64,000 nucleotides of DNA from Bacteroidota bacterium (lineage in GTDB: Bacteria > Bacteroidota > Bacteroidia > Bacteroidales > JAAAOM01). Positions 9,717-61,840 of this stretch are shown piece after piece. Each line of letters starts with the position of its first letter. Positions within the stretch are counted from its first letter, which is position 1. The notes below the pieces were generated by a model. The model was not told where the DNA came from and did no database searches. It was given only the letters and a program-made list of their open reading frames with translations. The stretch covers positions 67,249 through 131,248 of the forward strand of contig JAAAOM010000012.1 of assembly GCA_009908855.1 (NCBI GenBank), in the 5' to 3' direction. The position numbers were made by a program, and so were the translations under genes.

Positions 9717-9823
9717 GACTCTATCCTCCTTAAATTAACTGTGAGAAATAAAAAAAAGAATCCCGGGGATTCAGGACTCTCAATCGTACAAAGATACGAA
9801 AAAAGAAACCGAAAATAAAAAAA

Positions 9824-10336
9824 TCAATAATGTTTCCGATTAATTATCTCGCTCATTATTATGGCCTGACGTGGATCATTGCTAAATCGTTTCAGGATTT
9901 GCTGAATGGATTCCTGTCCATCGGATTGAAATGAGTTCTTCCGATAGGTTTTTTTTTCGTACCCCTGATCGTCTATATTATCCTGGTCTGTTGATTTCTG
10001 CCCCTCTTCAAACACTTCCTGTGTAGCAGGATTAAAATGTCCGTATTCATCCTTTTTCTTAGCTATCTCATCTTTTTCTTCTTCAATATGCTCCTGCTGT
10101 TGTTGATATTGATCCGAACCAGTTTCCTCCTCAGAAAAATTTTGCGCAAAAAAATCATCTATCGATTTAATTCCGCTGTTAAAATAATTATCACTTGTGC
10201 GGTAGGCGGGTTCTTCATCAAATTCGGGATAGGTTTGTTTAACCTTATCCTGTTTATTTTTTTTATGAATTGCACTTGCAATAATACCCACTACAGCAAT
10301 GAGAATGGGTATTAATGTCCCAAAAAATTCTTCCAT
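9824..10336 (-). CDS. hypothetical N-terminally membrane-anchored acidic protein
   Basis: 170-aa ORF with an ATG start. It has one N-terminal TM helix (LIPILIAVVGIIASAI) and then an E/D/Q-rich tail. I recognise no family. Confidence 0.5.
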   Translation of the reverse strand: MEEFFGTLIPILIAVVGIIASAIHKKNKQDKVKQTYPEFDEEPAYRTSDNYFNSGIKSIDDFFAQNFSEEETGSDQYQQQQEHIEEEKDEIAKKKDEYGHFNPATQEVFEEGQKSTDQDNIDDQGYEKKTYRKNSFQSDGQESIQQILKRFSNDPRQAIIMSEIINRKHY

Positions 10337-28222: not shown

Positions 28223-29107
28223 TTAAATCCATTCTTCTTTTAAAATTTCTCCTTCTAAGCCCACAACGGTAAGTTTAACCGGCACTTTCCGTTGTGCCTG
28301 TTCAGCAGCGGACTTTACCAGTTGAAGCAATCCGCCGCAACAAGGCACCTGCATAATCATTACCTGTAAGGTATTTATCATCGCCTGATCGATCAATGCC
28401 ATAATTTTTTGCGCATACACTTCCTGGTTGCTGTCCAGTTTCGGGCAGGCAATAGCCAGGCTTTTGCCCGCGAGGTATTGGCTATGAAAATTACCCAGGG
28501 CATACGCCACACAGTCAGCAGCAATAAGTAAATCGCTTTGCCTGAAATAGGATGCATTCGGGCTTATTAAATGCAGCTGAACGGGCCACTGAGCCAACGC
28601 CGATGCCGGTACATTTTGCCGGGAATCCATAACAATACTTTCTGCTTTAGGTGTCAGGCTCCGGGCCTGAGAACCCGGACAACCGCCACCACCATGAGCA
28701 TGCCCATGTCCATTATTGTCCTTTGCATGCAGGGCATTTCGAATATCTTCCAGGGTAAAATCAAGTTCATTTTCGTGGTCAATAATGTAAGCGATACCTT
28801 CCTTCAGATAATCCCTTTCGTTGTGATCTTTTAAGTGTTTCAGATGCGCCACCACGGTATTTTTACCTTTCTGTGCCATCAATGCCATCACCTTGGTTTC
28901 GTTATAGGGCTCGGCCTCTCTTTTTTCAATGGTTATTGCTTCCTGCGGACAATGGCCGATGCATGCACCCAACCCATCGCATAATAAATCACTTATCAGT
29001 CGTGCTTTGCCGTCAATAATTTGCAATGCACCTTCATGGCAGCCTGGTACACATAAACCACAGCCATCACATTTATCTTCGTCTATTTTAACAACTTCAC
29101 GAATCAT
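28223..29107 (-). CDS. 4Fe-4S dicluster domain protein with a His/Gly-rich linker and a C-terminal CCGG motif
   Basis: The N-terminus has CDGCGLCVPGC and CDGLGACIGHCP, which are ferredoxin-type cluster motifs. The middle has NNGHGHAHGGGGCPGS and the C-terminal part has MQVPCCGGLL. Confidence 0.7.
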   Translation of the reverse strand: MIREVVKIDEDKCDGCGLCVPGCHEGALQIIDGKARLISDLLCDGLGACIGHCPQEAITIEKREAEPYNETKVMALMAQKGKNTVVAHLKHLKDHNERDYLKEGIAYIIDHENELDFTLEDIRNALHAKDNNGHGHAHGGGGCPGSQARSLTPKAESIVMDSRQNVPASALAQWPVQLHLISPNASYFRQSDLLIAADCVAYALGNFHSQYLAGKSLAIACPKLDSNQEVYAQKIMALIDQAMINTLQVMIMQVPCCGGLLQLVKSAAEQAQRKVPVKLTVVGLEGEILKEEWI

Positions 29108-29158: not shown

Positions 29159-29174
29159 TGTAACAAATGTTACA
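29159..29174. promoter_or_regulatory. perfect palindrome TGTAAC-AAAT-GTTACA, a candidate Crp/Fnr (HcpR-like) operator of the 4Fe-4S/cupin/nrfHA operon
   Basis: The 6-4-6 perfect inverted repeat lies 52-67 nt upstream of the ATG at 29107. On the minus strand, a TATATTAG box (one mismatch to TAnnTTTG) lies at 29137-29130, placing the palindrome centre roughly 40 nt upstream of a likely start site. Confidence 0.5.
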
Positions 29175-29194
29175 AAATGCAAATTATTATAAAT

Positions 29195-29280
29195 TCAAAA
29201 AGCCCCGCAGGTGGCGGGGCTTTCATTTAGATAAAACCTTAATATTACGAAATTTTGCTGTATAAAAAAGCTGTGTTATA
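29195..29280 (-). ncRNA. candidate small RNA, unit 1 of a tandem triplet
   Basis: It lies downstream of TGCAAC-N18-GTCT (29313-29286). It contains ACAGC...ACAGC and the core TTTCGTAATATTAAGGTTTTATCTAA. It ends in the hairpin AGCCCCGC/GCGGGGCT (29201-29221) followed by TTTTTG on the minus strand. Confidence 0.5.
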
Positions 29281-29285
29281 GTCAC

Positions 29286-29313
29286 AGACTAATTGGGGGT
29301 AAAAATAGTTGCA
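29286..29313 (-). promoter_or_regulatory. ECF-type promoter candidate (TGCAAC-N18-GTCT) for unit 1
   Basis: The minus strand reads TGCAACTATTTTTACCCCCAATTAGTCT. The spacing is identical to the motif upstream of the ECF sigma gene. Confidence 0.55.
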
Positions 29314-29403
29314 TCCATTATCAGTGCCAAATAATACGATGGTTAGTTACTCACATTTACCGGAAGTTTATTAACAATTTATGTCATTAGAATCTGTTAG
29401 GCA

Positions 29404-29498
29404 GGAAATAACACACCCCGAAATTTCTTTCGGGGTGCGAAGACAGTCTGTGACCTTAATATTATGAAACGCTGTAAGTATAAAGTTGGCTGTCTTAT
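29404..29498 (-). ncRNA. candidate small RNA, unit 2 of a tandem triplet
   Basis: It lies downstream of TGCAAC-N18-GTCT (29531-29504). It contains ACAGC...ACAGC and the core TTTCATAATATTAAGGT. It ends in the hairpin CACCCCGAAA/TTTCGGGGTG (29414-29437) followed by a weaker T-rich tail, TGTTATTTCC. Confidence 0.45.
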
Positions 29499-29503
29499 GT
29501 ATT

Positions 29504-29531
29504 AGACCAAAAATTAGGCCAAATGGTTGCA
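29504..29531 (-). promoter_or_regulatory. ECF-type promoter candidate (TGCAAC-N18-GTCT) for unit 2
   Basis: The minus strand reads TGCAACCATTTGGCCTAATTTTTGGTCT. It begins a few nt after the unit 3 terminator tail. Confidence 0.55.
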
Positions 29532-29537
29532 TAACTA

Positions 29538-29632
29538 ATAAAAAAGAAATGCCCCGTTTCACAACGGGGCATTTCACGTACTTAGATAAAACCTTAATAT
29601 TACGAAAAAGCTGTTTTTTATTTGCTGTCTAT
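29538..29632 (-). ncRNA. candidate small RNA, unit 3 of a tandem triplet
   Basis: It lies downstream of TGCAAC-N18-GTCT (29665-29638). It contains ACAGC...ACAGC and the core TTTCGTAATATTAAGGTTTTATCTAA. It ends in the hairpin ATGCCCCGTT/AACGGGGCAT (29549-29572) followed by TTTCTTTTTTATT on the minus strand. Confidence 0.55.
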
Positions 29633-29637
29633 AAGGT

Positions 29638-29665
29638 AGACAAGGATAAACTCAAAAAGGTTGCA
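29638..29665 (-). promoter_or_regulatory. ECF-type promoter candidate (TGCAAC-N18-GTCT) for unit 3
   Basis: The minus strand reads TGCAACCTTTTTGAGTTTATCCTTGTCT. It starts 27 nt after the anti-sigma stop codon. Confidence 0.55.
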
Positions 29666-29691
29666 CGGGAATAAAAAAGTTTATGATTTTT

Positions 29692-30870
29692 TTAATATCC
29701 GTAGATATCCCTGATGCCTTCATGCTTAACGGTAACCCGTCCATTTAAAGAAAATGGCTCTCCATTAACATATTTACCTTCCGCATGCCAAATATACTGA
29801 CCATTGGGTGCCAGTCGGCCATGTATATAACCATTCCATCCCTGATTAATATTATCAGTCCTGAAAACCTCCATCCCATTGGGTGCTTTAATGGTCAGTG
29901 AATATTCACTAACCCCGTTATACTGCGGATGAAAAATGGATTCCGGCCAGTCGGCTTTGTGATAGTATCCGTTATTTTGACGGCCCTGTGGACCGGGTAC
30001 AAAATTTTGCGGATAAGACAATCCATATTGCTCCTTAAGAAAATTGGCTGTTAACTCACTTGTATCCTTACAAGCATTTTCAGAAGTGGCTATTAATTTG
30101 ACATTATAAGACTGGTAATTGCTGTATTGATGTAAAGGTTCTTTTTCGCGGGATGATTGGCCATCACCAAATAACCATAAATATTCATCTGCATTTTTGG
30201 ATTTGTTTTCAAACTGAATGGTTTTTTGGGTATTGCTTGATTTTGCTTCATCGATTGAAAAACCGGCTTTGGGGCGACTATGTACGATCACCTCCCTGAC
30301 CTCCTGGTCTGCATTTCCGCTCACCGATATTGCCTGTAAACGAATTGTATGGGTCCCGGGTTCATTAAAAATATAGGTGGTGTTTGGTGAACTTATTTCT
30401 TCCTTCTCATCCAAATACCAGGTAATCGCTTTTGCATTATGGGATGTGTTTTTCAATTCAACTTTTAATGGAGCACATCCTGCCATAGCTGACATTGTAA
30501 ATTCAGCCTCCGGGGTTATAACCTCTTCTTCCGATTCATTTTTCCTGGATATAGGCTGTTCTTCCGCAGAATTTAATTCCGTTTTATTGGTAATATTTTT
30601 GCCGGCAGCCGCTTTTTCATGTTGAACCTCCACGGTATTGACCGGGGAATTTGATTCAGGTGAATTATTAGCTACAAAATATCCGGTTGAAACACCTGCC
30701 AGTAATAAAATGGTATAATAAATATTAAAATGGGAAAGTTTAAGGGAAAAGAAATCTCTTTTCCATAATTTTTTTCGAAGTCCTTTTAAAGCCCTTGTTG
30801 AAGGATTTACCTCATGTGCATCAAAGGCATTTTGGAAGAACTCCTCTATATTAAATGATTCCTTACTCAT
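29692..30870 (-). CDS. putative anti-sigma factor: short cytoplasmic N-terminus, one TM helix, PKD-like domains and a CHU_C/T9SS type B-like C-terminal domain
   Basis: It overlaps the ECF sigma gene by 8 nt. The TM helix is IYYTILLLAGVSTGYFV at about residue 50. The extracytoplasmic part has PKD-like repeats (FTMSAMAGCAPLKVELKNTS...; FENKSKNADEYLWLFGDG). The tail NGMEVFRTDNINQGWNGYIHGRLAPNGQYIWHAEG...GRVTVKH resembles the gliding-associated C-terminal domain. Confidence 0.65.
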   Translation of the reverse strand: MSKESFNIEEFFQNAFDAHEVNPSTRALKGLRKKLWKRDFFSLKLSHFNIYYTILLLAGVSTGYFVANNSPESNSPVNTVEVQHEKAAAGKNITNKTELNSAEEQPISRKNESEEEVITPEAEFTMSAMAGCAPLKVELKNTSHNAKAITWYLDEKEEISSPNTTYIFNEPGTHTIRLQAISVSGNADQEVREVIVHSRPKAGFSIDEAKSSNTQKTIQFENKSKNADEYLWLFGDGQSSREKEPLHQYSNYQSYNVKLIATSENACKDTSELTANFLKEQYGLSYPQNFVPGPQGRQNNGYYHKADWPESIFHPQYNGVSEYSLTIKAPNGMEVFRTDNINQGWNGYIHGRLAPNGQYIWHAEGKYVNGEPFSLNGRVTVKHEGIRDIYGY

Positions 30871-31408
30871 TTTCCCAATTCATTTTTTGCATTTGTTTAA
30901 CAACCCAGTTTTTTGCTCTTAAATACTGTGATTTAGAGGTGCTTTCATCAATATTCAATTTTTCAGCAATCTCTTTATGCTTATAACCTTCAACGGCATA
31001 AAGATTAAAAACCATTCGGTACCCTTCCGGCATTTGAGCCAATAAATCATGCAATTCTTTCACCGAATACTCGGTATCCGGTGTAATATTTATCTTCAAT
31101 TCCTCCTCTGTCATGTCCTCCACGTCCTGATGATGATAGTATTTTTTATTTTTATGATAATGGGTAATTGCGGTGTTAATCACAATTCTTTTCATCCATC
31201 CTTCAAAATTTCCTTTCCCGGTATAACTATCAATATTGTCGAATATCTTCAAAAATGCTTCCTGTAAAATATCTTCAGCTTCCGGTTTGCTCTCGGCATA
31301 GCGAATACAAACCCCCAACAGCAATGCCGCGTAATGCTCATACAAATACATTTGAGCTTTTCGCTTATTCTTCTTACATCCTTCTATGATCTTTTCAAGA
31401 TCAAACAT
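30863..31408 (-). CDS. ECF-subfamily RNA polymerase sigma-70 factor
   Basis: 181 aa. Region 2 is EAEDILQEAFLKIFDNIDSY...FEGWMKRIVINTAI. Region 4 is LAQMPEGYRMVFNLYAVEGYKHKEIAEKLNIDESTSKSQYLRAK. Confidence 0.9.
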   Translation of the reverse strand: MFDLEKIIEGCKKNKRKAQMYLYEHYAALLLGVCIRYAESKPEAEDILQEAFLKIFDNIDSYTGKGNFEGWMKRIVINTAITHYHKNKKYYHHQDVEDMTEEELKINITPDTEYSVKELHDLLAQMPEGYRMVFNLYAVEGYKHKEIAEKLNIDESTSKSQYLRAKNWVVKQMQKMNWENE

Positions 31409-31423
31409 TCCTTTCCGTTTTTA

Positions 31424-31451
31424 AGACTCGCAATTTGATAAAAAAGTTGCA
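31424..31451 (-). promoter_or_regulatory. candidate autoregulatory ECF promoter (TGCAAC-N18-GTCT)
   Basis: The minus strand reads TGCAACTTTTTTATCAAATTGCGAGTCT and ends 15 nt upstream of the sigma factor ATG at 31408. The AAC-containing -35 and GTC-containing -10 are the classical ECF layout. Confidence 0.6.
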
Positions 31452-31769
31452 TCGCTATCGAGAATAAAAATATAAATTTATTCCTTTCAGCCTGCGTGCA
31501 ATCAATATTATTGATTAACAATTGAATACCTGTATAGCCAAATGATAGAGGAACGGGAATTGGACACCGGGCATGGAGGTGCAGAGGGCTGAAATTGGAT
31601 TGGAGATTTAGGTTTCGGGTATTGCGTATTTAAATGTAAATAAACATGCAACTTTAATAAGAAAAATCAGGTTATCCGGAACATCGTAAATTATATATTC
31701 CCATTAATGCATGTAATATATGCATAGATAAATTCAATTTCTGTATATTTCTAAAAACATTTTTTAATT

Positions 31770-32444
31770 ATGAACCAAACCCTTCAAGATATTCTTCAAA
31801 ATGCACTTTTTCAGGGTTTTACTTATAGTGAGCTGGAGCCGTTGATGCAACAGATCAATTACCAGGTTATACAATTTGAAAAGGGCGATGTGCTGGTACA
31901 ATCAGGTGATTCCTGCGATTACTTATTGCTGCTCACACGGGGAAGTGTGAGTGGCGACATGATGGATTTCAGCGGTAAAACCCTGAAAATTGAAGATGTA
32001 CATGCAGGAAAACCTCTGGCAATCGCTTTTATTTTTGGTAAACAACATACATTCCCGGTAACTTTAACAGCCAATGAACATGTAAAGGCAGTTCGCATTT
32101 GGCGTGATGATTTGCTCAAGCTCATGCAACTGAACAGGAAATTTTTACATAATTACCTGAACCTAATTAGCAACAAAGCACAATTCCTCTCTGAAAAGCT
32201 TCATTTTCTTTCATTTAAAACCATTCGGGAAAAATACGCGCATTTCCTGCTTAAATACTATCCCGACGCAAATATAAACCCGGTCAGGATAAAAGAATCT
32301 CAACAACAAATGGCTGATTTATTTGGTGTTACGCGACCATCACTGGCCCGGGTAATGGCTGAATTTGAAGATGAAAAAATTATTTCCGTCAGGAAAAAAC
32401 AGCTAACCATTCTTAATATGGACCAGTTACAAGGGATGACCTGA
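31770..32444 (+). CDS. Crp/Fnr-family transcriptional regulator
   Basis: 224 aa. It has an N-terminal cNMP-binding-like beta-barrel (FEKGDVLVQSGDSCDYLLLLTRGSV) and a C-terminal HTH (QQQMADLFGVTRPSLARVMAEFEDEKII). Confidence 0.85.
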   Translation: MNQTLQDILQNALFQGFTYSELEPLMQQINYQVIQFEKGDVLVQSGDSCDYLLLLTRGSVSGDMMDFSGKTLKIEDVHAGKPLAIAFIFGKQHTFPVTLTANEHVKAVRIWRDDLLKLMQLNRKFLHNYLNLISNKAQFLSEKLHFLSFKTIREKYAHFLLKYYPDANINPVRIKESQQQMADLFGVTRPSLARVMAEFEDEKIISVRKKQLTILNMDQLQGMT

Positions 32445-49427: not shown

Positions 49428-50339
49428 TTGGCCATACAATTTTTAGCAAATAAAGACATCAACTACCAACGCTGGAACAATTGCATCCAAAAGTCATATA
49501 ATGGCAATGTGTTTGGTTATACCTGGTACCTGAATATTTTAGATGACGATTGGTATGGAATCATTGAGGACGATTATAAAACAGTAATGCCGGTGTTTGC
49601 TTATAAAAAGTACAATCGTCTTATTGGATACACACCCGAATTAGGGAGTCAGTTCGGGATTTACAGCCAGCAAATTCTTTCAACTCAAAAAACCAATGAA
49701 TTTATTGACCTGCTGAATAAAAAACTATCCGCTTATCATATACACCTCAATAAATTTAATACTATCCGACGAACCGATATACAAGTAAAACATGTGCCGG
49801 TATACGAGCTTGATTTAATAAAACCTTATAAAAAAATTTTCTATTCGTATGATTTCGATACCCGCAAAAAAATTCAGCAGGCCGAAAAAAATAATATCTC
49901 GATATTAAATGGCCTGCGCCCGAGCGAATTCATCAACTTTCTTTACAAAGAAGAAAAAAATCTTAAGTTTGAAGTGGAGACCATCCGCATTGCCCGCCTG
50001 CGGTTGCTAATTTCAACAGCCCTGCGTTATCGTATGGGGCAAATGATGGGTGCCTATACACGCGAGAATACATTATGCGCCGTGGCTTTTTTGGTATGGG
50101 GTAAAAACAAAATTCACCTTAAATTTCTGGCTTCCAACCAAATAGGCATTGATGAAAAAGCCATTTATTTATTATTAGATCATTATGTTAAAGGAAAATC
50201 AGAAAAAAATTTAATTTTGAGCATGGAACCAGGTGCATTTATCAAACACCCGGACCTATTTAAAGAATTTGGAACCATTGAAGCCAAAAGTCAGGTAATC
50301 ATCAAGAAAAAAAATAACTGGTTCCGATTAAAAAGATAG
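49428..50339 (+). CDS. hypothetical protein; possibly an acyltransferase/FemAB-like fold, unverified
   Basis: The 303-aa ORF opens with TTG at 49428 and is tightly packed between radC and upp. I recognise no clear motif. Confidence 0.5.
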   Translation: MAIQFLANKDINYQRWNNCIQKSYNGNVFGYTWYLNILDDDWYGIIEDDYKTVMPVFAYKKYNRLIGYTPELGSQFGIYSQQILSTQKTNEFIDLLNKKLSAYHIHLNKFNTIRRTDIQVKHVPVYELDLIKPYKKIFYSYDFDTRKKIQQAEKNNISILNGLRPSEFINFLYKEEKNLKFEVETIRIARLRLLISTALRYRMGQMMGAYTRENTLCAVAFLVWGKNKIHLKFLASNQIGIDEKAIYLLLDHYVKGKSEKNLILSMEPGAFIKHPDLFKEFGTIEAKSQVIIKKKNNWFRLKR

Positions 50340-50341
50340 AA

Positions 50342-50992
50342 ATGTTAAGAATATTAGGCGACCATAATTCAATCATCAATAACTTTCTGTTGCAAATGCG
50401 CGATGTAAATTTGCAGCAGGACAGAATGCGCTTCAGACGAAACCTTGAGCGTATTGGTGAAATATTTGCCTACGAAATTAGCAAAGCGCTTACTTATAAA
50501 AATTATGAGGTAACCACCCCTTTAGGAGTGGCCAGGGTACCGGTTTACGAGGAAAACATTGTACTGGCCACCCTGCTTAGGTCAGGCTTACCCTTTCAGC
50601 AAGGTATATTGAATTATTTCGATCAGGCCGAAAGTGCATTCATATCGGCTTATCGCAGATTTGAAGAAGGAGATGAGTTTAAAATTTCCTTTGGCAATAT
50701 TACCTCTCCTGATATTAATAATAAAACCTTAATACTGAGTGATCCCATGCTGGCCTCAGGTTCATCAATGTACATGGCATACAAAGCGTTGCTCGACAAA
50801 GGAAAACCGCAACACACGCATATTGTATCCATTATTGCCAGTGAAGAAGGGGTGAATTACCTGAAAAAACATTTATCAACCAAAAATTCAACTATTTGGA
50901 CGGTTGCGATCGATAACGAATTAACCGTAAAATCATACATCGTACCAGGCCTGGGTGATGCCGGAGACCTGGCTTATGGGCACAAAGCTTAG
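50342..50992 (+). CDS. upp: uracil phosphoribosyltransferase
   Basis: The PRPP motif is LILSDPMLASGSS and the C-terminal motif is YIVPGLGDAGD. Length is 216 aa. Confidence 0.9.
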   Translation: MLRILGDHNSIINNFLLQMRDVNLQQDRMRFRRNLERIGEIFAYEISKALTYKNYEVTTPLGVARVPVYEENIVLATLLRSGLPFQQGILNYFDQAESAFISAYRRFEEGDEFKISFGNITSPDINNKTLILSDPMLASGSSMYMAYKALLDKGKPQHTHIVSIIASEEGVNYLKKHLSTKNSTIWTVAIDNELTVKSYIVPGLGDAGDLAYGHKA

Positions 50993-59810: not shown

Positions 59811-59950
59811 AATGAGTATCGGGTTATTAACCTAAGTATTATAAAACTAAAAATGAACACCACAAATTCCCCTCTTCAGAGGGGTTTAGGGGTGTGTTAT
59901 AATAAAAACCTGTTCATTTTTTAGTTTTTGGGTACAATATCCGATACCTA
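59811..59950 (+). mobile_element. 140-bp MITE-like palindromic element, copy B, flanked by the 10-bp direct repeat TATTATGAAA
   Basis: Identical flanks lie at 59801-59810 and 59951-59960. It has the same orientation as copy A and a nearly identical core. It ends 19 nt upstream of the GHMP kinase ATG. Confidence 0.75.
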
Positions 59951-59969: not shown

Positions 59970-60965
59970 ATGATCATCGAATCAAGGGCATTCGCGCGTG
60001 CCGGGTTATTAGGAAATCCTTCTGACGGTTACTTTGGAAAAACAATATCAGTTATCATCCGTAATTTTGGCGCACGGATATCGTTATACGAAACACCTGA
60101 GCTGGAAATAGAAGAACAGGAAGTGGACCGCAATAAATTCCGAAATGTTTACCAATTGCTCGATAGTGTAAAGCAAACAGGATATTACGGCGGCTCCAGG
60201 CTGGTGAAAGCAACCATTAAGAAATTCACTGAATACTGCGAGCATAACCAAATTAAGCTGGGCAATAAGAATTTTACCGTCCGTTATCAGTCGTCTATTC
60301 CCCGGCAGGTTGGACTGGCCGGTTCAAGTGCCATTGTAACAGCCACCATGCGTGCACTGATGCGGTTTTATAACATTCAAATTCCCAATGAAATCTTACC
60401 GGGTCTGTGCCTGGAAGTAGAAACACAGGAACTGGGTATCAATGCCGGTTTACAAGACCGGGTAATTCAGGCTTATGAAGGATGTGTGTATATGGATTTT
60501 GACAAAAACTATTTCAACAAACACGGCTACGGCAAATATATACCGCTGGACCCAAATAAGCTGCCAAAATTATACCTGGCCTATAAAACACAATTGAGCA
60601 AAGTATCCGGACAAGTTTTGAATAACATCCGCGAACGTTACGAAGCCGGCGATTCTGAAACCATCGATACCCTGCATGAAATTGCCTCGCTCGCCGATGA
60701 AGGTAAAAAAGCCATTGAAAACGGTAATTATGCATCATTGAACAAGCTCATTAATAAGAATTTCGATTTACGCTGCAAGATTATGAACATATCCGAAAGC
60801 AACCATGAGCTGGTTATGACAGCCAGGAACTGCGGAGCCTCGGCCAAATTTTCCGGTTCCGGCGGCGCAATCATCGGTATTTATGAAGATGATGAAATGC
60901 TGCAAAAACTAATCGTCAACCTGAAGAAAATTAATGCAAGAGTTATAAAACCTTATATGATATAA
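59970..60965 (+). CDS. GHMP-family sugar-1-kinase resembling plant-type glucuronokinase
   Basis: SRAFARAGLLGNPSDGYFGKTISVIIRNF, GYYGGSRL, the GHMP motif SIPRQVGLAGSSAIV, GINAGLQDRVIQAYEGCVYMDF and KFSGSGGA are present. As far as I recall the Arabidopsis glucuronokinase sequence, these blocks match it closely. Confidence 0.65.
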   Translation: MIIESRAFARAGLLGNPSDGYFGKTISVIIRNFGARISLYETPELEIEEQEVDRNKFRNVYQLLDSVKQTGYYGGSRLVKATIKKFTEYCEHNQIKLGNKNFTVRYQSSIPRQVGLAGSSAIVTATMRALMRFYNIQIPNEILPGLCLEVETQELGINAGLQDRVIQAYEGCVYMDFDKNYFNKHGYGKYIPLDPNKLPKLYLAYKTQLSKVSGQVLNNIRERYEAGDSETIDTLHEIASLADEGKKAIENGNYASLNKLINKNFDLRCKIMNISESNHELVMTARNCGASAKFSGSGGAIIGIYEDDEMLQKLIVNLKKINARVIKPYMI

Positions 60966-60970
60966 ATGTT

Positions 60971-61840
60971 ATGGTAAAAAAAGCTGTTATTCCCGCCGCA
61001 GGATTTGGGACCCGGTTCCTTCCGGCCACCAAAGCCCAACCAAAAGAAATGTTACCAATTATCGATACACCAACCATTCAGTACGTAGTGCAGGAATGTG
61101 TGGACTCCGGAATTGAAGATATCCTCATTATCACCGGTCGCGGTAAACGAAGCATCGAGGATCATTTCGACCGCAATACCGAACTGGAATCACGCATCAA
61201 AGAAAAAGAAGACGAAACATTGTACAATCAAATCCGACACATTGAGGATATGGCAAACATTCACTACATCCGTCAAAAAGAATTAAACGGACTGGGTGAT
61301 GCCATTTACTATGCGAAGGATCATTGCGGACATGAACCTTTTGCAGTGCTGCTGGGCGATACAATCATCAATTCGGTTATACCGGTTACCCAGCAAATGA
61401 TTGATACCTTCGAGCAATACCACCAAACCATTATAGCCGTTGAAACAGTACCGCGCGATAAGGTATCGCGATATGGAATTGTTGGCGGAGAAAAGATCAG
61501 CGACCACCTGATGCAGCTAAACGAACTGGTTGAAAAGCCCGATGTCGATAAATCCCCTTCAAACTGGGCTATTGCCGGCCGTTATATCCTGACTCCCGAA
61601 ATATTTGATGCCATTGAAAAAACACCCCGCGGGAAAGGGAATGAGATACAATTAACCGATGCATTGCGTTTGCTTATGAAGCATGAAAACCTGATGGCAT
61701 TATCGATTGAAGGCCAACGTTACGACATTGGTAACAAGCTCGATTATCTTAAAACCACCGTTGAATTTGCCTTGCGACGGAAAGAATTTGCCGGCCCTTT
61801 TGCTGATTTTCTTAAAGAAACAGTTAATAATATGAAGTAA
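60971..61840 (+). CDS. galU: UTP--glucose-1-phosphate uridylyltransferase (GalU-type sugar-1-phosphate nucleotidyltransferase)
   Basis: KAVIPAAGFGTRFLPATKAQPKEMLPIIDTPTIQYVVQE and LGDTI...VEKP are present. Length is 289 aa. It starts 5 nt after the kinase gene. Confidence 0.85.
   Translation: MVKKAVIPAAGFGTRFLPATKAQPKEMLPIIDTPTIQYVVQECVDSGIEDILIITGRGKRSIEDHFDRNTELESRIKEKEDETLYNQIRHIEDMANIHYIRQKELNGLGDAIYYAKDHCGHEPFAVLLGDTIINSVIPVTQQMIDTFEQYHQTIIAVETVPRDKVSRYGIVGGEKISDHLMQLNELVEKPDVDKSPSNWAIAGRYILTPEIFDAIEKTPRGKGNEIQLTDALRLLMKHENLMALSIEGQRYDIGNKLDYLKTTVEFALRRKEFAGPFADFLKETVNNMK

Follow-up and report, generated by a model that had tools for sequence, protein, structure and literature searches.

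We analysed a stretch of 64,000 nucleotides (nt), hereafter the window, from a Bacteroidota bacterium (JAAAOM01; assembly GCA_009908855.1, contig JAAAOM010000012.1, positions 67,249-131,248 of the forward strand), in which three related units lie on the minus strand between the stop codon of an open reading frame (ORF) at 29692-30870 and the ATG of a 4Fe-4S protein gene at 29107. The ORF follows the gene of an extracytoplasmic function (ECF) sigma factor, for which the ECF superfamily model alone among the NCBIfam models passes its cutoff and no named equivalog does. Its product comprises a conserved N-terminus of ~45 amino acids (aa), one hydrophobic segment, two PKD domains (Pfam) placed extracytoplasmically and a conserved C-terminal domain, and from its position and topology we regard this PKD protein as a putative anti-sigma factor. 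About eight full-length homologs were found, at most 47% identical and always encoded directly after a sigma ortholog. Past unit 1, Pfam identified Fer4, cupin, NrfH and NrfA genes, and the genes flanking the units are those named in the first-pass annotation of this DNA, in which the units were initially described.

The same order of blocks is repeated in all three units. The 17-nt core TTTCRTAATATTAAGGT has exactly three copies in the window, all on the minus strand, the sole further match at up to three mismatches being an unrelated site at 59830, and units 1 and 3 have an exact repeat of 26 nt in common. A perfect GC-rich inverted repeat lies 3' of each core; a terminator scan called terminators in units 2 and 3, with stems of 12-13 bp, and the hairpin of unit 1 has a 10-bp stem followed by TTTTT. 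With a GC-rich hairpin and a U tail in each, the predicted transcripts have the make-up of small non-coding RNAs that end at an intrinsic terminator. No hairpin was found between the anti-sigma stop codon and unit 3, so the terminator of unit 3 probably also ends the transcript of the sigma operon. The first-pass annotation had proposed three minus-strand units of one block order, with a repeat shared by units 1 and 3 beyond the core, and searches for the core, for repeats and for inverted repeats recovered all of this; the transcript length of ~85-95 nt given there agrees with our predicted lengths of 83-93 nt. The hairpins were found as well, with limits slightly wider than proposed, and the distance between the two ACAGC blocks, put at 9-14 nt, is in fact 8, 13 and 9 nt. 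Past the core, the sequence of unit 2 departs from that of units 1 and 3, and this unit may be a functionally diverged paralog. Immediately ahead of its terminator stands CUGUCUU, the complement of the AAGACAG at its 5' end; pairing between the two would put the core in a large loop.

A repeat finder revealed a further feature, absent from the first-pass annotation: a TGCAAC block upstream of every unit, in register with the cores. A search for TGCAAC-N15-20-GTCT gave four matches in the window, compared with 0.47 expected, and none of 100 shuffles reached four. The four copies agree in strand (minus) and in their 18-nt spacer; three stand before the units and the fourth lies 16 nt upstream of the sigma ATG, where the predicted transcription start site (TSS) at ~31416 would leave a 5' untranslated region of 8 nt. 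The AAC...GTC layout with ~17 nt between the boxes is classic ECF promoter architecture, and the targets of Streptomyces coelicolor sigma-E carry GGAAC/TGCAAC-N17-CGTCT (PMC6767563). To follow the motif in relatives, we searched with an alignment of sigma orthologs (52-80% identical) and took 80 loci each from GTDB genomes and metagenomes; nearly all belong to uncultured Bacteroidales or Bacteroidota, and 156 of the loci could be evaluated. Among these listed matches, 90 of the 156 loci have TGCAAC-N18-GT in the 130 nt before the sigma ortholog, the background being 0.007 per 130 nt; the consensus over the loci reads aTGCAACCaTTt-N-GTCttaaaaatg, and its median end is 19 nt before the ATG. In 2.5 Mb the motif occurs 131 times, and about 100 of these occurrences are sigma promoters or RNA units. 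Since ECF sigma factors typically autoregulate, this conserved upstream footprint leads us to infer strongly that TGCAAC-N18-GTCT is the autoregulated promoter of the sigma family, recognised in the window by the adjacent sigma factor; a promoter of the consensus predicted for this sigma factor stands before each of the three units and before the sigma gene itself (Table 1). A scan for sigma-70 promoters, whose model is not applicable to Bacteroidota, gave nothing above shuffle expectation.

Table 1. Predicted features of the sigma/anti-sigma operon and the three units, in window coordinates
Feature	Position	Strand	Details
ECF-type sigma factor gene	30863..31408	-	181 aa; Pfam Sigma70_r2, Sigma70_r4_2, Sigma70_ECF
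Putative anti-sigma gene	29692..30870	-	392 aa; start overlaps sigma stop by 8 nt
Sigma/anti-sigma operon promoter (predicted; ECF type, autoregulated)	31424..31451	-	-35 TGCAAC 31446-31451; -10 GTCT 31424-31427
Unit 3 promoter (predicted)	29638..29665	-	TGCAAC-N18-GTCT
Unit 3 predicted RNA	29538..29630	-	~91-93 nt; AGACAGC start at 29630; core 29591-29607; hairpin (perfect inverted repeat) 29546-29575; U tail
Unit 2 promoter (predicted)	29504..29531	-	TGCAAC-N18-GTCT
Unit 2 predicted RNA	29404..29496	-	~92 nt; AAGACAGC start at 29496; core 29453-29469; hairpin 29412-29439 (perfect inverted repeat 29414-29437); weak tail UGUUAUUUCC
Unit 1 promoter (predicted)	29286..29313	-	TGCAAC-N18-GTCT
Unit 1 predicted RNA	29194..29277	-	~83 nt; core 29236-29252; hairpin (perfect inverted repeat) 29199-29223; UUUUU after

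Within a sub-clade whose sigma factors are at least 60% identical, every contig of sufficient sequence carries units of the same promoter and a terminator after the anti-sigma gene. There are two in locus L001 and one each in L002, L005 and L008, L006 and L007 have one each in which the contig ends, and L009 has one unit located 1.7 kb upstream of the sigma gene; the anti-sigma identity across these unit-bearing relatives is 37-47%. In 10 of the 11 units, counting those of the window, the conserved RNA sequence (AGACAGC or AGGAAUU) begins exactly 7 nt past the -10 box, which is the expected start of an ECF transcript. At their 5' ends the units are of two flavours, AGACAGC..., found in the window, and AGGAAUUUAU(AU)CAAAGGAA; they have in common a core rich in A and U, ...AAGG(A/U)..., after which AUCU(G/A)A stands immediately ahead of the terminator. 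Outside the sub-clade, no units turned up in the more distant loci when the -35 box was relaxed, and a metagenome scan with the sub-clade sigma alignment yielded, among the matches listed, only sequences of 54% identity or less, none with RNA units. Viral contigs contained no match to the window core; their five matches to the AGGAATTTATATCAAAGRAA flavour were rejected as chance, as they have neither an ECF motif nor a terminator.

Unit 3 was compared with the units of L007 and L006, where the anti-sigma proteins are 46-47% identical. Both boxes (-35 and -10) agree fully, spacer and discriminator are ~33% and ~40% identical, respectively, and the ~52 transcribed nt differ by one substitution and two frame-breaking indels (4 nt and 1 nt). 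A conserved promoter with a conserved non-coding transcript fits this pattern; a protein gene or neutral duplication debris does not. The comparison bears on the idea that the units are leftovers of a local duplication of promoter and terminator, or decoy promoters that titrate the sigma factor, with an RNA that has no function. The units are indeed local tandem paralogs that carry the promoter of the sigma gene, and their number varies from one to three depending on the locus; however, the transcribed core is ~100% conserved between the window and L007, against ~33% for the spacer and 47% for the neighbouring protein, related cores recur in loci with only 37-39% anti-sigma identity, and a pure decoy would need just the -35 and -10 boxes. 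We therefore consider a functionless RNA quite improbable. The contig ends at L006:1801 and L007:1355 lie inside the conserved RNA core, and because assembly graphs tend to break at tandem paralogous copies, these two genomes probably also hold more than one unit.

The comparison of units also speaks against their being small protein genes. Short ATG ORFs occur in some of them, e.g. MKAPPPAGLFEF... in unit 1, but unit 2 and the units of L002 and L009 have no ATG ORF of six or more codons, the remaining ORFs begin in or beside the terminator hairpin and encode unrelated peptides, and the indels of 4 nt and 1 nt between unit 3 and L007 break any common frame, so that a coding function appears very unlikely. 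The statement of the first-pass annotation that no ORF is conserved between the units thus extends to all 11, and protein-coding conservation in relatives, which it had named as evidence that would contradict sRNA-like units, was not seen. Folding of the nine complete predicted RNAs (59-93 nt) gave a strong terminal hairpin and a weakly structured body with a largely unpaired core, the 5' segments folding at 0 to -0.7 kcal/mol. A small hairpin with CAGC in its loop had been proposed on the grounds that A- and U-tracts are swapped around the second ACAGC in two of the units. The swap is present in the sequence, but the hairpin drawn from it is unsupported: the explicit A/U stems are unfavourable, at +2.0 to +6.2 kcal/mol, and several homologs have a single ACAGC.

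These results establish the units as a real, conserved, non-coding feature, and the original description of three paralogous, independently terminated, non-coding units resembling small RNAs (sRNAs) and belonging to no named family is supported by the promoters, the terminators, the lack of a conserved ORF, the Rfam searches described below and the homologs. We consider it likely that they are ECF-sigma-dependent sRNA genes attached to the sigma/anti-sigma operon, and infer that the RNAs are expressed.

Further variation was seen among the promoters. In six sub-clade loci the -10 box of the sigma gene's own promoter is non-consensus, reading GTAA, GTTA or GTGT (L001:5420, L002:35, L004:2409, L005:356, L008:4957 and L009:4959), and the promoters of the RNA units retain the family consensus GTC(T/A/C). 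With the -10 consensus kept at the units and not at these six sigma genes, the autoregulatory promoter may be weaker than those of the RNAs. At window positions 31647-31674 on the plus strand, 96 nt upstream of a Crp/Fnr gene, we noted a TGCAAC-N18-GTTA sequence; it could be a further ECF promoter, given that the -10 box is GTTA or GTAA at several sub-clade sigma genes, or it could be one of the two to three background matches expected in the window. At ~9750-9894 on the minus strand, a hairpin with a long stretch of T lies ~110 nt past a TGAAAC-N18-GTCA sequence; this sequence has no relation to the units, and its match is probably due to chance. Directly after the anti-sigma stop codon of L004 (4150-4225), at the place taken by an RNA unit in other loci, lies a degenerate tandem repeat of GATGTTG/GATGCTA..., with no ECF motif in the 288 nt at hand.

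Because 87 nt separate the end of unit 1 from the 4Fe-4S start codon, which it precedes on the same strand, the units could also be cis-acting leaders or attenuators of the downstream 4Fe-4S-cupin-nrfHA operon. A leader should remain linked to its downstream gene, but the gene next to the units varies: on the nrf side in the window, it is an unrelated gene on the opposite strand in L001 (SUI1) and L002 (DUF2752). In addition, the two closest Fer4 orthologs (L168, 72%, and L169, 69% identical) have no unit; their Fer4-cupin genes directly adjoin a divergent Crp/Fnr-family gene, and the ~90-nt intergenic region contains the palindrome TGTAAC-N4-GTTACA (L168:1322-1337, L169:4993-5008) and no ECF motif. 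The only perfect copy of this palindrome in the window, at 29159-29174, lies downstream of the strong terminator of unit 1 and ~50 nt upstream of the 4Fe-4S gene, and no riboswitch or leader family was detected at gathering score. There is accordingly hardly any room for a cis-acting role. The palindrome is probably the operator through which the Crp/Fnr-family regulator, encoded in the window by an ortholog at 31770-32444 (43% identical), would control the Fer4-cupin(-nrfHA) operon. The first-pass annotation had placed the units between two operons, which is correct as to position, but the units belong to the sigma/anti-sigma operon and are unrelated to the nrf operon.

Comparison of window positions 29190-31770 with L168:1307-1395 and L169:4979-5080 shows the sigma/anti-sigma/RNA block and a further ~320 nt with no assigned feature (31452-31769) interposed between the Crp/Fnr and Fer4 genes. 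Because these genes adjoin in the relatives and the palindrome has stayed with Fer4 in the window, the 2.3-kb block of sigma gene, anti-sigma gene and three RNA units looks like a cassette whose insertion has parted a regulator gene from its operator. With a GC content of 0.33-0.40, the cassette does not stand out from its flanks. Its edges show no clear flanking repeats; GAATTTAT is found near both, which may be chance.

We propose the following mechanism. In response to what is presumably a signal at the cell surface or envelope, the membrane-anchored PKD anti-sigma factor would release the sigma factor, and the freed sigma factor, as part of RNA polymerase, would activate its own operon from TGCAAC-N18-GTCT as well as the three identical promoters just downstream. 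Each of these promoters would yield an RNA of ~85-93 nt, composed of an unstructured A/U-rich 5' body and an intrinsic terminator, whose single-stranded core UAAUAUUAAGGUUUUAUCUAAG (in relatives AUCAAAGGAAU...AUCUGAA) would most likely serve as a seed that pairs with mRNAs elsewhere in the genome. The sRNAs would thereby give an activator-only sigma factor a repressing arm, as MicA, RybB and MicL do for sigma-E, and repression by base-pairing in trans appears to be the most probable mode of action. To our knowledge, Bacteroidota lack Hfq. As to the signal, the C-terminal ~120 aa of the anti-sigma protein (window 29692-30050) have a weak match to CHU_C, the type-B sorting signal of the type IX secretion system (T9SS; PF13585, E=0.016, below cutoff), the distant homologs P0011 and P0013 carry PF13585, and at L003:6495-8211 the operon is followed by PorP/SprF and OmpH genes. 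The resemblance to PF13585 and the neighbours in L003 hint that type IX secretion or the cell surface may be what the system monitors.

Several observations weigh against the interpretation as base-pairing, sigma-dependent sRNAs. The set of 11 units comes from eight loci, two of its members are incomplete, and all relatives are metagenome-assembled sequences; L003 and L004 have no unit in the stretch at hand. This set is too small for covariation statistics, and RNAalifold on the core-to-terminator segments gave no consensus structure, the unrelated terminator stems failing to align. The U tail of unit 2 is poor, the TSS and 3' ends of the units are predictions, and the link between the motif and the sigma factor rests on the autoregulation footprint. 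Target prediction for the core, suggested in the first-pass annotation, produced no recurring or convincing target in the 64-kb window and the start regions of the loci: duplex scans against the start regions of ORFs of at least 80 aa in each locus gave no recurring target, and the seven core complements of at least 11 nt in the window, compared with 2.05 in shuffles, are mostly intragenic and no significant enrichment, as 5.7% of the shuffles equal this number. Feedback pairing with the sigma or anti-sigma mRNAs was rejected, with z values of -1.5 to +1.7 and the longest complementary runs within the shuffle range. As 64 kb of one genome was searched for targets, little can be concluded from this negative outcome.

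The exact complement of the core UAAGGUUUUAU, ATAAAACCTTA(ATA), has three plus-strand copies in the window. Those at 50721-50734 (14 nt) and 49818-49828 (11 nt) lie inside coding sequence, and the third, an 11-nt complement at 60945-60955, is located in the last codons of an ORF, 26 nt upstream of an NTP-transferase gene (60971-61840). As a target, this last site is only a lead.

With no target found, one can ask whether the units are ECF-dependent RNAs that bind or sequester a protein, e.g. the RRM-type protein RbpB, rather than pair with mRNAs. The long A- and U-tracts and the Shine-Dalgarno-like AAGG could be protein-binding sites, three tandem copies would raise the dose as for a sponge, and Bacteroides sRNAs including FopS and BTnc231 are RbpB ligands. 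On the other hand, a conserved single-stranded core of 20-25 nt beside a terminator is the typical layout of a seed-bearing sRNA, and a search of 64 kb of one genome says little about the absence of targets. We regard protein sequestration as unlikely, though it has more in its favour than a functionless RNA, and retain base-pairing sRNAs as the preferred interpretation.

A more far-reaching and tentative possibility, which we put forward with less confidence than the identification of the sRNA genes, is that in this sub-clade of Bacteroidia a PKD anti-sigma sensor, a sigma factor and one to three sRNAs form one portable module that inserts as a block at new sites, with the RNAs as the main, perhaps only, output beyond its own operon. 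Bacteroidota would then have their first described noncoding arm of an ECF sigma factor, and no earlier example would be physically joined to its sigma operon and end at a common terminator. Bacteroidota genomes encode dozens of uncharacterised ECF sigma factors each and have unusual translation signals. If the sRNA genes are confirmed, the principle of an ECF sigma factor with an sRNA arm would reach Bacteroidota, beyond Proteobacteria and Fusobacteriota. In practical terms, the analysis provides a predicted promoter motif for a widespread unnamed ECF family, a promoter-anchored route to sRNAs in uncultured Bacteroidota and a compact candidate set of sensor, sigma factor, promoter and sRNA that could be reused in Bacteroides or Flavobacterium genetics.

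Neither the window nor five related loci matched any family of Rfam 15 at gathering score, in agreement with the first-pass annotation, which had recognised no named family. The best permissive match was BTnc231 (RF04180), to unit 3 only (33.1 bits compared with a gathering score of 80.4, E=9.4e-05 in a 1-kb search); it was rejected because 45 model positions are deleted, the score comes mostly from the terminator and the 5' end of the model falls on the untranscribed -10 region, and the model has no match to units 1 and 2 or to the units of relatives. In Bacteroides thetaiotaomicron, BTnc231 is an intergenic sRNA candidate that has a TSS and a terminator of its own and was confirmed on Northern blots (PMC7366714), and the window units resemble it in being intergenic sRNA-type genes with their own, here predicted, start and terminator. 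FopS (RF04319; 17.9 bits compared with a gathering score of 56) and GibS (RF04182; 21.9 bits compared with a cutoff of 115) were likewise rejected. Both are multicopy Bacteroides sRNAs that repress translation at start-codon regions, and the FopS sRNAs have sigma-ABfr promoters and target susC start regions (PMC11697453). The units share with FopS the phylum and the build of a single-stranded seed, putative in the units, and a terminator, but the FopS genes are dispersed in the genome and have a different seed, and the -7 box TAnnTTTG of the housekeeping sigma-ABfr was not found in any of the 11 units.

In the literature on ECF-dependent sRNAs in Bacteroidota, the sole precedent found was Rfp11 of Flavobacterium psychrophilum, a putative regulatory RNA whose TSS has the predicted ECF-type promoter motif SM6 (PMC9723704). 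Like the units, it is a putative Bacteroidota RNA with a predicted ECF-type promoter; unlike them, it is a single gene, not reported beside a sigma operon, and its SM6 motif, which is associated with T9SS genes, has CGT as the -10 box, a distinction drawn from the published description. Short RNAs beside an ECF sigma gene in Bacteroidota also bear a superficial resemblance to the guide RNAs of the RNA-guided dCas12f/sigma-E transcription system recently described in Bacteroidetes (PMC13472631). However, no TnpB- or Cas12f-like gene adjoins the sigma gene or lies less than about 10 kb from it, the neighbours being the PKD protein, Crp/Fnr, ArsC, CAP, fumarase, Fer4, cupin, NrfH and NrfA, and the partner of the sigma factor is a PKD membrane protein. 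That system, moreover, transcribes without promoter motifs, whereas a conserved promoter motif is the main feature here, and of all the explanations considered we give guide RNAs the least credence.

ECF-sigma-dependent sRNAs are established in Proteobacteria and Fusobacteriota, where they form the repressing noncoding arm of an activator-only sigma factor; those dependent on sigma-E include MicA, RybB and MicL of Enterobacteria, VrrA and MicV of Vibrio, and FoxI and FoxJ of Fusobacterium nucleatum (PMC11005410). The window units differ from these in having no sequence similarity to them and no Rfam match, and their sigma factor belongs to a different, uncharacterised Bacteroidota ECF group with a PKD-domain anti-sigma factor; sigma dependence and targeting are predictions for the units. 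We know of no sigma-E-dependent sRNA that is encoded next to rpoE, whereas the units stand in one to three tandem copies directly after the anti-sigma gene and seemingly travel with it as a cassette. Judged from sequence alone, the units are like the sigma-E-dependent sRNAs in being small and terminator-ended, in having promoters that match the consensus of the cognate ECF sigma factor and in that several of them would serve one sigma factor. MicA, RybB, MicL, VrrA, MicV, FoxI and FoxJ would be their closest functional analogues, and the units, as far as their sequences allow a classification, constitute a new RNA family within a known regulatory design.

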